64,000 bases of DNA, from NCBI RefSeq assembly GCF_009931435.1, contig NZ_CP043414.1; one strand, given 5' to 3'. Position numbers and translations under genes: made by a program. Each line of letters opens with the position of its first letter. Positions within the stretch are counted from its first letter, which is position 1. Of the stretch, positions 46,421-64,000 are shown piece by piece. This stretch comes from Escherichia coli. GTDB taxonomy: Bacteria; Pseudomonadota; Gammaproteobacteria; Enterobacterales; Enterobacteriaceae. The notes below the pieces were generated by a model. It was not told the DNA's origin and did not search any database. It saw only the letters and a list, made by a program, of their open reading frames with translations.

Positions 46421-46511
46421 TGTGCTTCCTCATTATGGTGACGCATACATAGCGTTCTCATTTCGTGCGCACATTGTAAACCAGAGTTGCGAAGGTACAA
46501 AAAATTAACGT

Positions 46512-46546
46512 TTTAGCAATAGCTATATAATATAGCCATTGCTAAA
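46512..46546. promoter_or_regulatory. 35-bp near-perfect palindrome about 95 bp upstream of mntR; candidate operator
   Basis: tttagcaatagctatat-a-atatagccattgctaaa, 17-bp arms with one mismatch, read directly; centre is TATA-rich. Confidence 0.4.
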
Positions 46547-46824
46547 TACATAAAATCAAATAAAATCATAATGTTAACAAAACAAAAAAAATAATCAATG
46601 TCGCAAAAATGTCTCACAAAACAAAAGCCATAACTTATTTGCTTGTTTTTTTATAGTGTCAGTATTAATCTAGTATATCAAAATGTTATCACTTCAATTA
46701 TTCTCTGCTTAACATTTATTTAAGAAATAATATTTTTAAGCTCTTTAAAAAAACCTTAAATAACGCTGATAGTTTCTTAGGAAAACTTAACGATAGTGGT
46801 AAATTAATCCCAAAGGACTAAAAA

Positions 46825-48060
46825 ATGGTATTAAGTAACTGTATTCAATGTCAGTCATGCAAATTTATATATAGAGTTAGGGTTGGTATTGGGTTTGATA
46901 AATACCAAAGACATTATATGGACTGTTTTGAGTGTAATATTCCTATTGTTTTTGCTATACGAACAGACCCACCAAATGCTTATCTTGAAGCGGAAGAAAA
47001 CTGCCTAATTGTTGAACATAGTACAGACCACAAGGTTGTTAACTTCCATCCGGGATGTGCTTTTAATAAAGATGAGATACATCAGTCACTGATATTCCCA
47101 TCTATTGAATTGACACAAATGATTCATAAACATATGAGGATGCCGAAAGGACAACGCCTTATAAGTGCCTCTCATCAATTTGATATTCCCAACGCCCCCT
47201 CCAAATGGAATTATTTAAAATCAATAATAAAACTTATTAATGAAGGAAAGAAAGACAAAGCTCAGAATACAGCAAAGCTTTATATGCAATCAAGAAATAA
47301 AGAGTTACCTTTGTATAATGAAGATGATAGCTATTCCTCTACATCTCTAATCTATGAGTTTTTAGATTGGCTTTTCTATCCTCGAGTACATGATATAGCC
47401 GATTCCATTAAAAAAACAATTGATGACCTTAAAGAACAAAATTTGTTGGATGATTTTTACGCTTTCTATAAAGAAAATTTAAAATCCGAAAATGAACAAA
47501 GATACATCAATATAATATCAGATTTCATGGCTCGTAGAGATCATTTCGGGCAGTTAATCTATTACGCAAGAATTAACAACGATGCAATAGACGATAAGAT
47601 AATTAGCTCTAAGAACTTCGATAATGTAAGAAATTATTATGGAGATGCTTATGAAAGTCTGACATCTAACATGACTATTTTAGCATGTATTAATAACATC
47701 GTCAGTGGAAGGGCATTCGATCAGTTCAAGCAAATGACATTGAATAAATACATAAAGGATGTAAATAAAGACAGTAAAACAAACCCATTTAAGGACAACC
47801 CTTTATTTAGCGCATTTTGTGAAGATGATTTAGAGTCAGCAATAAGAAATGGTTCTCATCATGCCTCTATATGGCATGACGGAGAGAGTATTCGATATAG
47901 AAGTGGCGGAACTGGCGCAGAAAGAGAAATAAGCTATACAAAATATATTCACCTTTGTAATAAGCTAACTCTTAAAATCGTAAGTTTGTGGTTAATTGAA
48001 CTTCATATCCAACATATTTACGAAAAAGATGATAATAGCTATGCATGGTTTCATCTTTAA
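46825..48060 (+). CDS. Hypothetical protein, 411 aa, AT-rich cargo gene with N-terminal Cys cluster (possible zinc ribbon); function unknown
   Basis: Long ORF with AAGGA RBS 8 nt upstream of ATG; sampled lines are about 28-37 percent G+C versus about 50 percent in flanking genes; N-terminus CIQCQSC...CFEC; rest rich in K/N/D/E/Y; no family recognised by eye. Confidence 0.6.
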   Translation: MVLSNCIQCQSCKFIYRVRVGIGFDKYQRHYMDCFECNIPIVFAIRTDPPNAYLEAEENCLIVEHSTDHKVVNFHPGCAFNKDEIHQSLIFPSIELTQMIHKHMRMPKGQRLISASHQFDIPNAPSKWNYLKSIIKLINEGKKDKAQNTAKLYMQSRNKELPLYNEDDSYSSTSLIYEFLDWLFYPRVHDIADSIKKTIDDLKEQNLLDDFYAFYKENLKSENEQRYINIISDFMARRDHFGQLIYYARINNDAIDDKIISSKNFDNVRNYYGDAYESLTSNMTILACINNIVSGRAFDQFKQMTLNKYIKDVNKDSKTNPFKDNPLFSAFCEDDLESAIRNGSHHASIWHDGESIRYRSGGTGAEREISYTKYIHLCNKLTLKIVSLWLIELHIQHIYEKDDNSYAWFHL

Positions 48061-48116
48061 GTTAAATATTTGATTCACTAATTTTCAGTTTCTACTCACT
48101 CTAATGATTGTACATA

Positions 48117-48143
48117 GCCCGCACCATTCTTGGTATTGCGGGC
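48117..48143 (+). terminator. Weak hairpin downstream of the 411-aa gene
   Basis: gcccgca-13 nt loop-tgcgggc followed by ttt. Confidence 0.3.
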
Positions 48144-48553
48144 TTTCAGCCGTTTATATCACTTAACGCAATTAGATCATGCAACTTTACACAATATGGT
48201 TTTTTCTATTATTTTTCAGTTGGTTGAATGGATTAGCCATCACACAACTGATCTATAAAACTGAAAAACACTGAAATTCTTTTCAATCTTTTCAGTGGCA
48301 GCTCTCCGGCAAACCGCCAACAGTGGCGCAGCCTGACGCTCACGTTTGTAGAAAAATAAAACTGAAAAATTTTATCGATCCAGAAACCGCAGGCGGGTGC
48401 GGTGTAGTGCCATTTTGGTCTGCGAAAGATTTATTTTGTCAGTGCGTAGTGCCGTCAGCGCAACGTGACAGCACAGATCCTTTTGTGGTGTTACGGGATG
48501 GTGGTCAGAGAAAAAAAGTGCTTAGAATGCTTCTGGTTGCGTGAGAATACAGG

Positions 48554-48579
48554 TATAAAAAACCCGCACTAGGCGGGTA
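48554..48579 (-). terminator. Rho-independent terminator of the 84-aa gene (minus strand)
   Basis: Plus strand reads aaaaaa-acccgc-actag-gcgggt; on the minus strand this is a perfect 6-bp GC stem followed by a T-run, directly after the ORF stop. Confidence 0.55.
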
Positions 48580-62571: not shown

Positions 62572-63071
62572 ACTTTTTTCACCGTTGCCCGTTTCAGCCC
62601 TTTCATACGGCGGATCTCCACCGATGCTTCAGCCAGTAACCCCGCACGGGTTTCCATACTTTCCTGTCCTGGATGAGTATCGCGCCGCCCGATAGTGGCG
62701 AACTCCCCCAGCAGATCCGCTTTTGCCCTGGCAAAAACGGCCTTCATATACTGGGCGCACAGGCTGTTCAGTCCGCCCATTTTTACGCCCGGTACCTCTG
62801 CCGCCAGCGTGTGGCCTTTCGCTATCCAGCTGGCCTCCACGTTTTCCAGTTCCGCATTCACCTCCGCCACCGCTGCAAGCAACGCCTGGCTGATGGTGTC
62901 AGCGTCAATATCTGGCGGTAGTGACCGCTGCGCCTGAAAATCCTTCAGATTCAGATCTGGCCAGAATCCGTTATTGGTCAGCGGTTCATCCTGATAATCC
63001 AGCGGCTTTCCGCTAAACATAAATCCCCCGAAAAAGGCGGACTGGCCGGTTTCCACGGCGCAGTTACACAC
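62568..63071 (-). CDS. Head completion/stabilisation protein (gpL-like)
   Basis: About 150-167 aa (likely start MFSGKPLDYQDEPLTNNGFWPDLNL); size, position after the terminase-small-subunit-like gene and N-terminal GFWP pattern suggest the gpL family. Confidence 0.45.
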   Translation of the reverse strand: MCNCAVETGQSAFFGGFMFSGKPLDYQDEPLTNNGFWPDLNLKDFQAQRSLPPDIDADTISQALLAAVAEVNAELENVEASWIAKGHTLAAEVPGVKMGGLNSLCAQYMKAVFARAKADLLGEFATIGRRDTHPGQESMETRAGLLAEASVEIRRMKGLKRATVKKV

Positions 63072-63118
63072 AAGGCGTTCTGCCCTCCACCGCGTCCGCC
63101 TGGCTTGCGGTAGTCTTT

Positions 63119-63217
63119 TTAGTGCTCAGTATTAAAAGTGTGCGTATGTGCGCCTGCGTTATGGTTATATGCACTCACACTATGGGTATGTGCACCTTGT
63201 AAATGGCTTTCTTTCAT
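63119..63217 (-). CDS. Micro-ORF, 32 aa, His-rich with repeated A-H-T-H motifs ([32 protein letters not shown])
   Basis: Not in the ORF track (under 60 aa). ATG preceded at about 9 nt by AAGGA lying in the last codons of the upstream gene; stop TAA; sits in the 152-nt gap between the terminase-like and head-completion-like genes. Confidence 0.35.
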   Translation of the reverse strand: MKESHLQGAHTHSVSAYNHNAGAHTHTFNTEH

Positions 63218-63223
63218 TTGTTG

Positions 63224-63928
63224 TTATCCTTGAGTTGTCAGTTTTCGGATACGGGCGGCAATTGTCTGCCGCGCCGTTCTGACGCCAATTTTTGAGTAGT
63301 GTTTTTCTGCAATAGCCAGCAGCTGATCGGCTTTTTCCAGCGTTTTAATATCATCCACGCCCGCCGCCGTTTTCTGCCCATCGTCATTGCGTAGCAACTC
63401 CAGACCGGCAAACTTGAACCATTTGGCCGTCACCTGCTCATGCAGTCGCCAGGTGTTTGCCACCCGCTCAAACGTGCGGGTGAAATAAGGCTCAACACTT
63501 TCCCCGCGCCCTGCGGTTTCCTGCGCCCATGCCAGCATCGTATCCGCCACAAACGTGGGGAAATTGCTGCGCAACCGATCCGGGGTTGCCTGCTGCTGAC
63601 TGATTGCAATGTCAGCCCAGTCCAGCGCCTTATCCAGATCGCCCACGTCAAACAGCCAGATAACACACCAGGCGAAAATCGGATTTGCATACACCTGGCC
63701 ACTCTCCAGATAGGCTTCCACAGTGGGAACCCAGCGCGGCAACAGCACATCACGTTTATACTCGACGCGATCGGCAATGGTAGGTAGACTTCGAACATGT
63801 TCCACATCCGTTTCCAGCGCCCTGATCAGCATGTGCATACTTTCCGTGGTGTCCAGTGCCTGGCTGCGCTTCAGCTTTTGTTCCATTGCAATACGCTGGC
63901 TGTGACGCTGCGCAGGGGAAAGTGCCAT
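63224..63928 (-). CDS. Terminase small (endonuclease) subunit-like protein (P2 gpM-like)
   Basis: 234-aa MALSPAQRHSQRIAMEQK...; the SPAQRH N-terminus and LLPRWVP...LESG pattern resemble P2 gpM as I recall it; position upstream of the gpL-like gene fits. Confidence 0.5.
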   Translation of the reverse strand: MALSPAQRHSQRIAMEQKLKRSQALDTTESMHMLIRALETDVEHVRSLPTIADRVEYKRDVLLPRWVPTVEAYLESGQVYANPIFAWCVIWLFDVGDLDKALDWADIAISQQQATPDRLRSNFPTFVADTMLAWAQETAGRGESVEPYFTRTFERVANTWRLHEQVTAKWFKFAGLELLRNDDGQKTAAGVDDIKTLEKADQLLAIAEKHYSKIGVRTARQTIAARIRKLTTQG

Positions 63929-63931
63929 TTA

Positions 63932-64000
63932 TCAGCCCTCCACCGGTTCGGAGACTTTGCCGATTGTCACAGCGGATTCATCAATGGCTGCATACAGCTC
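63932..64000 (-). CDS. 3' end of an upstream phage head gene (possibly major capsid); 5' part outside window
   Basis: Minus-strand frame open from the window edge to TGA at 63932-63934 (...ELYAAIDESAVTIGKVSEPVEG-stop), followed by TAA and the ATG of the next gene. Confidence 0.35.
   Translation of the reverse strand, partial: ELYAAIDESAVTIGKVSEPVEG

Follow-up and report, generated by a model that had tools for sequence, protein, structure and literature searches.

What has been inserted beside mntR in this Escherichia coli chromosome, and where does the insertion begin? The window examined here is a stretch of 64,000 nucleotides from contig NZ_CP043414.1 (assembly GCF_009931435.1), in which a sequence-only reading, made without database searches, had placed the end of the conserved backbone at about 46.5 kb and a myovirus-type prophage block from there past the window edge. 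We conclude, with a probability of about 0.9, that positions 46538 to 64000 are the left (attL-proximal) 17.5 kb of a temperate, contractile-tail phage of the Peduoviridae, ~30.9 kb long, ESSI-2-like and belonging to Quadragintavirus; that this particular copy is complete and inducible is what we infer. The phage uses an attachment (att) site in the mntS/rybA promoter, and beside it lie a variable cargo slot, occupied here by a gene for a zinc-ribbon plus HEPN protein, and a putative cohesive-end (cos) site.

Positions 41595 to 46547 align in reverse orientation to the ybiT-ldtB-ybiR-mntR region of E. coli K-12 MG1655 at 95% identity. A base-by-base comparison puts the last base matching K-12 at 46537, within the mntS/rybA promoter, with only a partial match over 46538 to 46547; the backbone thus ends where it had been expected to, and phage DNA follows to the window edge. 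Up to the junction both sequences read ...GTTTTAGCAATAGCTATATAATATAGCC, after which K-12 continues with TGTGCTATATCTG... into rybA/mntS, whereas the window continues with ATTGCTAAATACAT.... The statement that K-12 has mntS/rybA and opgE at this position agrees with the K-12 annotation, where rybA/mntS is followed by opgE; neither was found in the window between the junction and 64000. The guanine-plus-cytosine (GC) content is 30-36% across 46.5-48.5 kb and 48-57% beyond, there with a strong negative GC skew. No tRNA was found by a tRNA scan at the junction, which is thus not a tRNA attachment site; an Rfam scan of 44000-64000 gave no family above threshold, and a tandem-repeat search of the region returned nothing notable. 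Among 5426 complete E. coli genomes, the best match to the host backbone at 41600-46500 reaches 98.4% and most lie at 90-95%, while ybiR alone is 6% diverged from K-12; by these figures the host may be an atypical Escherichia lineage. A 24-mer taken from ybiR found no exact counterpart among the GTDB species representatives.

The remainder of the element can be followed in E. coli MFDS1016424 (NZ_CP106924.1), which carries the same prophage at ~99.9% identity over a length of ~30.9 kb. After the capsid gene this copy holds scaffold, divergent terminase and portal, ogr, a gpA-type replication endonuclease and Dam, and then cII-like, Fil, repressor and tyrosine integrase genes, a 193-aa open reading frame (ORF), attR, mntS and opgE, with zero pseudogene flags in the prophage. 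The expectation that integrase, replication genes and most head genes lie beyond 64000 is borne out by what is seen past the matching point in this near-identical copy. Between the window and MFDS1016424 there are ~16 mismatches over 17.4 kb of prophage, against 175 in 4.5 kb of host backbone (~3.9%). A prophage shared in this way by two diverged hosts suggests recent horizontal spread, the alternative being vertical descent with later recombination of the backbone.

The block had been taken for strain-specific accessory DNA, and its distribution agrees. The mntR-mntS interval is uninterrupted, an empty site, in 5392 of the 5426 genomes, a similar block occupies it in 24, and an integrase of this type occurs in 29. 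The block is therefore not core sequence in E. coli, and it is no element devoid of integrase and att repeats either, both being present in the MFDS1016424 copy. This is a rare prophage (~0.5% of complete E. coli genomes), otherwise routine.

Its classification draws on both copies. The window contains genes for gpL and gpM and the end of the capsid gene of a P2-type head module, which in MFDS1016424 takes the form O-N-M-L with divergent terminase and portal. A contractile-tail set is present in the PHROG matches (sheath, tube, baseplate J/W/I, fibre and fibre assembly protein), the cos region lies in the window, and ogr, the gpA-type endonuclease and the tyrosine integrase are seen in the MFDS1016424 copy. 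Genes for sheath, tube and baseplate J uphold the label myovirus-type, and isolates of the Peduoviridae come closest in sequence: in a megablast search against phages, 49004-64000 matched ESSI2_ev129, ev015 and ev040 at 95% identity over 97-99% of its length. These three were isolated as plaques from infant faecal viromes, at a time when prophages of this type were known in 1 of 10,943 E. coli genomes (Mathieu et al. 2020, PMC6969025). ESSI2_ev129 is classified in the Peduoviridae, genus Quadragintavirus, and the MFDS1016424 prophage aligns to it over 81.8% of its length at 91.1% identity, ~74.5% overall. The International Committee on Taxonomy of Viruses (ICTV) requires at least 70% whole-genome nucleotide similarity for a genus and places the species threshold at 95%. 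An overall similarity of ~74.5% to ev129 is genus-level and excludes the same species, and by nucleotide similarity the prophage is a Quadragintavirus member at the rank of a new species.

How the phage entered can be reconstructed from the two copies. Tyrosine-integrase recombination at a 12-bp core, TATAATATAGCC, would have inserted it in the mntS/rybA promoter, between mntR and mntS, with the crossover falling within a palindrome that we read as the MntR operator and taking in the mntS -10 box. From the junction inwards the order is P' arm repeats, variable cargo slot, cos, an orphan ORF and the minus-strand late genes. By comparison with the near-identical prophage, attR and the genes still missing for head, replication, immunity and integrase would lie past 64000. 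The exact junction and att repeat had been thought beyond identification without a reference; both are now located, the core at 46526-46537 and its repeat at attR in MFDS1016424. The core occurs at positions 4959 and 35828 of the MFDS1016424 locus (L001) and in the window solely at 46526, and positions 5057-5086 of the K-12 locus (L002) occur at both prophage ends in MFDS1016424. K-12 attB consists of left flank, core and right flank, and the window takes in one of the two prophage ends, attL. By direct reading of the sequences, the core is embedded in an imperfect attP/attB match of ~27 bp. Both predicted attP arms carry the tandem repeat ATGTCGCAAAAnTGTC(G/T)C, at 114 and 103 bp before the core and at 72 and 83 bp after the core start, and the motif recurs at the junctions of two sister prophages (loci L005 and L007). 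These repeats are putative arm-type integrase sites and their layout is as expected for such sites. The attP sequence is predicted to be ...GTTAATGCTTTATAATATAGCCATTGCTAAATAC..., and the right end of the window's own element, expected ~13.4 kb past 64000, to read ...GCTTTATAATATAGCCTGTGCTATATCTG, followed by mntS and opgE.

A perfect TATAAT, the mntS/rybA -10 hexamer, lies inside the core at 46526-46531, and the annotated rybA 5' end (K-12 853064) maps to window position ~46539, 7-8 nt downstream. As the core holds the -10 box and rybA starts just downstream, integration takes place in the mntS promoter, and because the core includes the box, both junctions retain TATAAT. The flanking ATAGC-N4-GCTAT-like palindromes, which resemble the MntR consensus, are read here as the boxes of a putative MntR operator. 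At attL the hybrid palindrome forms an inverted repeat with 16 pairs; integration has left the host's own upstream promoter DNA and the first presumed MntR box untouched, and has turned the second into a near-perfect hybrid. At attR, mntS retains its -10 box and the downstream box and has acquired phage DNA upstream. Transcription of mntS is repressed by MntR:Mn (PMC4361602; PMC9806134). The attL promoter is directed into the prophage, in the same orientation as the cargo gene 286 bp downstream, and no terminator-like site was predicted on the plus strand between this promoter and 48396. In a lysogen, manganese status might influence expression of the cargo; with the -10 box duplicated on integration, manganese homeostasis could be perturbed or phage cargo placed under a host metal-responsive promoter. 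The cargo is on the plus strand in three of the sister prophages and on the minus strand in one, and this mixed orientation argues against a conserved dependence on the attL promoter. A generic sigma-70 scan of 46300-49200 gave no more hits than shuffled sequence, and one full-text literature search on mntS and prophage returned no description of this attachment site.

The late genes form the bulk of the phage DNA in the window (Table 1). They had been described as one coupled late operon, all on the minus strand, with the tail-distal end facing mntR. The strand and the coupling hold for 49021-63928, where all genes are on the minus strand and neighbours mostly overlap by 1-30 bp or lie within 10 bp of each other, the sole larger gap being ~50-100 bp at 63020-63119; they do not hold for the first gene of the block, at 46825-48060, which is on the plus strand, low in GC and non-structural. 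The tail-distal end likewise faces mntR only at a distance, the first 2.5 kb being made up of att arm, cargo, cos and an 84-aa ORF. All 20-odd late ORFs are intact and equal in length to those of isolated relatives. The Ogr-type late promoter pattern TGT-N12-ACA gave 11 matches against 14.6 expected and is uninformative as to one or several late operons. The GAHTH-repeat ORF varies in length, with 32 aa here, 53 aa in MFDS1016424 (a 63-bp indel) and 78 aa in ESSI2_ev129, where it is labelled 'tail fiber protein'.

Table 1 Host, attachment, cargo, cos and late gene features from mntR to the right edge of the window
Position	Strand	Feature	Evidence or remark
45953..46420	-	mntR, last host gene before the junction	ORF; mntR annotation in near-identical locus and K-12
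46512..46546	.	attL hybrid site, 35-bp near-perfect palindrome TTTAGCAATAGCTATATAATATAGCCATTGCTAAA	host mntS promoter/operator left half plus phage right half
46526..46537	.	att core TATAATATAGCC (crossover region)	shared by the two ends of the MFDS1016424 prophage; last K-12 match at 46537
46599..46615	+	P' arm-type integrase-binding repeats TGTCGCAAAAATGTCTC, two copies 11 bp apart	putative function
46825..48060	+	cargo gene, 411-aa zinc-ribbon plus HEPN protein, 30-36% GC	RNGSHH at residues 341-346
48255..48440	.	cos region, putative cohesive-end sequence GCGGGTGCGGTGTAG at 48393-48407	phage record termini and conservation
48562..48578	-	GC-rich hairpin with T-run, likely terminator of the 84-aa ORF	
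48590..48844	-	84-aa ORF of unknown function, between cos and tail module	
48993..49007	-	terminator-like hairpin, end of the late (tail) gene string	
49021..50724	-	567-aa baseplate/hub-like protein, last late gene	phrog_2258, 3.5e-276; weak hub/VgrG-like matches
50724..51966	-	181-aa 'baseplate complex protein' and 241-aa conserved tail-module gene	phrog_1398, phrog_1677; annotation
51956..54150	-	tail fibre assembly protein (195 aa) and tail fibre (535 aa)	phrog_105, phrog_8239
54161..56251	-	gpI-like tail protein, baseplate J/gp47, DUF2590 protein	phrog_1228, phrog_6, phrog_1237; annotation
56248..58660	-	tape measure (655 aa), preceded by DUF6890 protein and tail assembly chaperone	phrog_28, phrog_1214; annotation
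58647..59775	-	lysis cassette: spanins, M15 endolysin, holin	phrog_456/2425, phrog_1152, phrog_1768, phrog_175
59785..61364	-	tail tube (151 aa) and contractile sheath (375 aa, DUF2586)	phrog_1182, 2.7e-75; phrog_907, 1.2e-163
61361..63020	-	tail completion, tail terminator, head completion (gpL-like)	phrog_26, phrog_65; annotation
63119..63217	-	small GAHTH-repeat ORF, 32 aa	between head completion and gpM
63224..63928	-	terminase small subunit gpM	ORF; annotation of near-identical locus
63932..64000	-	P2-family major capsid gene, 3' end, cut by window edge	ORF; annotation of near-identical locus

Sheath, tube, baseplate, fibre and lysis genes standing together are also what a phage-tail-like bacteriocin (tailocin) cluster would present. 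Here, however, head completion, terminase small subunit and major capsid genes continue the same string (62568-64000), which effectively refutes that explanation, and there is a cos site and the closest relatives are complete plaque-forming phages; we give a tailocin almost no credence. No more credible is a canonical P2 (Peduovirus) prophage at one of the known P2 attachment sites, in spite of the P2-family capsid, gpM, gpL, ogr and gpA-like genes that it would account for: P2 is not among the megablast phage hits, the cos differs from P2 GGCGAGGCGGGGAAAGCAC and lies between attP and the tail module instead of between gpA and gpQ, the sheath is of the DUF2586 type, the lysis genes are situated between tube and chaperone, and the relatives belong to a different ICTV genus. 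Canonical P2 is thus refuted at the genus level, and kinship at the family level stands.

More weight, although still little, attaches to the explanation that the block is a defective, non-inducible remnant whose right part, with integrase, replication or head genes, has been lost or has decayed. Only the left 17.5 kb are visible, and decay is on record in deleted relatives found at other sites with other integrases: EcPF15, adjoining ybjL, has retained cos and a pair of baseplate genes, now joined to a terminase fragment, and GF131, adjoining tRNA-Ile, keeps only cos and the immunity/integrase region. These two indicate that the phage group uses several attachment sites and decays in place. 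The 20-odd intact late ORFs with the lengths of isolated phages speak against a remnant, as does the ~99.9% identity to a complete copy in a host whose flank is ~3.9% diverged, which fits recent transfer of a functional phage, and we consider a remnant unlikely. Several points nevertheless count against a complete, active Quadragintavirus prophage. The window shows one end only, with its own attR, integrase, immunity and replication genes beyond 64000; a deletion past that point in this copy is possible; its excision and inducibility are predicted from sequence; and the putative cos at 48393-48407 was placed by record termini and conservation, not by mapped virion ends.

The termini in question come from three phage records. 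The sequence GCGGGTGCGGTGTAG stands at both ends of the record of Cronobacter phage ESSI-2, the ESSI2_ev129 record ends ...CCGCAGGCG and starts GTAGCGCC..., and the ev015 record terminates at the same cos position. Each end of the ev129 record (NC_049394.1 / LR597640.1) is fused to untrimmed Illumina Nextera adapter/index sequence, CTGTCTCTTATACACATCTGACGCTGCCGACGA..., at 1-43 and ~30875-30927; this contamination incidentally marks the physical genome ends. A P2-type cos was considered and rejected, as alignment to the P2 cos gave no meaningful similarity and ESSI-2-type termini were found instead; the sequence is unlike the cos of P2 and P4.

About 170 bp around the cos are conserved in 455 of the 5426 E. 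coli genomes at 77-87% identity, as against an ESSI-2-like prophage in only ~30. The two distant carriers that were opened, SK1144 and R12, are P4-like satellites with a DUF927 primase, ogr/delta, the shared cos, variable cargo and an integrase. These findings suggest that a lineage of satellites is matched to terminases of the ESSI-2 type, and in the ~420 E. coli genomes with this cos the helper of the P4-like satellites may be an ESSI-2-like phage instead of P2. The exact cos 25-mer is also found in species representatives of Enterobacter, Citrobacter, Kosakonia, Mixta, Buttiauxella and Erwinia. In Citrobacter sp. R56 the 25-nt cos core occurs without mismatch at three separate loci; one cell may here contain both a helper prophage and satellites. 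The 84-aa ORF between the cos and the tail module has no match in Pfam, PHROG, PADLOC or NCBIfam and just four homologues, mostly in Citrobacter; sister prophages hold an unrelated 110-aa ORF in its place, and the position may be a second small variable slot.

On the other side of the cos, between it and attL, each of four sister prophages integrated at this att has a cargo of its own: the 411-aa gene in MFDS1016424, as in the present element, an AAA ATPase with a serine acetyltransferase in AHB29, DUF6680, HAD hydrolase and DprA genes in MEI148-20EC, and a gene for a 345-aa hypothetical protein in TK3887. The DNA of the 411-aa HEPN gene was found in 1 of the 5426 genomes. By this variability the slot is a candidate cos-adjacent defence hotspot. 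DprA and the HAD hydrolase stand beside the same cos both in the MEI148-20EC prophage (L006 1395-4439) and in the R12 satellite (L017 6426-8636), which is consistent with an exchange of cargo between hotspots of helper-type phages and of satellites.

What the 411-aa protein does was approached through its family, motif and fold. It has no match in PHROGs, PADLOC (E<=0.1) or NCBIfam and only a non-significant Cys-rich match in Pfam-A; no curated HEPN sequence model in Pfam-A or NCBIfam matches it, and a PDB sequence-profile search with the family alignment gave noise only. Homologues of ~400 aa nevertheless occur in Enterobacterales, Vibrio, Aeromonas, Shewanella, Haemophilus, cyanobacteria and Bacteroidota, a profile search yielding 524 clusters (50% identity) at E<=1e-3 and 172 at E<=1e-30. 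R341, N342, H346, E277 and N291 are invariant in all 114 diverse full-length homologues, and every one of them that has the N-terminal region retains its four cysteines (CxxC...CxxC). The pattern R-N-x-x-x-H is the HEPN catalytic signature (PMC3710099), and R341-N-G-S-H-H346 has the form of the conserved Rx4-6H HEPN motif. An AlphaFold2 (AF2) model (predicted local distance difference test, pLDDT, 89.5; predicted template modelling score, pTM, 0.90) has a beta-rich domain at the N terminus and, after it, a helical body with the alpha-helical HEPN fold, and its Foldseek matches are proteins annotated as Cthe-2314-like HEPN, LA2681-like HEPN or ApeA N-terminal domain (E 1e-14 to 1e-18). The homologues lie on mobile elements with varying neighbours: one stands at the end of a P2-like prophage remnant in Enterobacter, another is carried by a Citrobacter integrative conjugative element, and a third shares an integrase island with Fic/Phd in a genome of Salmonella or Leminorella.

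Single-protein HEPN defences of this general kind include ApeA (preprint 10.64898/2026.01.26.701840) and DARNA/PD-T7-3 (preprint 10.64898/2026.02.22.705581), both infection-activated tRNA anticodon nucleases. As the known examples are infection-activated nucleases, we propose the cargo as a stand-alone HEPN RNase. Its fold, motif and context make it a candidate abortive-infection RNase, whose activity, trigger and defence phenotype we infer. Our fuller proposal is tentative and rather less than evenly probable: an undescribed single-gene abortive-infection system, acting as an infection-activated RNase, in a cos/att-adjacent hotspot of ESSI-2-like prophages, its expression perhaps coupled to manganese and the ESSI-2-like phages perhaps serving as satellite helpers. 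An unannotated, widespread family with a strict HEPN motif and a mobile-element setting is a reasonable candidate for defence-system screens.

Compared with these known systems, the protein stands apart. ApeA has ~580 aa and is mostly helical, whereas the cargo protein has 411 aa and a beta-rich, four-Cys zinc-ribbon N-domain, and the two share only a distant fold resemblance; in DARNA the HEPN domain is N-terminal, unlike here, where that position is taken by the zinc ribbon. Membership of the ApeA family was rejected on these differences in size and N-terminal domain and on the lack of a PADLOC match (E<=0.1), taking the ApeA model to be included; the PADLOC library is described as covering known and candidate defence systems, and models of ApeA, PD-T7-3 and PD-T4-2 are presumably among them.

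The phage itself is closest to ESSI2_ev129, ev015 and ev040, with which it shares the late gene order and the cos region. The repressor, integrase, attP arm, cargo and 84-aa ORF region of ev129 do not align with the sister prophage, and with an unalignable integrase and attP arm ev129 must use another attachment site; its cargo is a serine acetyltransferase in place of the HEPN gene. Cronobacter phage ESSI-2 (Seongnamvirus) matches the element in overall architecture, its record has this cos 15-mer at each end, and identity over the tube-to-tape-measure region is 76%, but at ~55% overall similarity it belongs to a different genus and has a different host. The P2 old/tin and P4-like psu-int hotspots likewise place a variable slot directly beside cos (Rousset et al. 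2022, PMC9122126). In P2, cos and hotspot lie between gpA and gpQ, whereas in the present element they lie between attP and the tail module, so that the slot is att-adjacent as well, and the cos is of a different sequence type from that of P2 and P4. A survey in which gpA and gpQ delimit the P2 hotspot would probably overlook a slot in this att-adjacent position.

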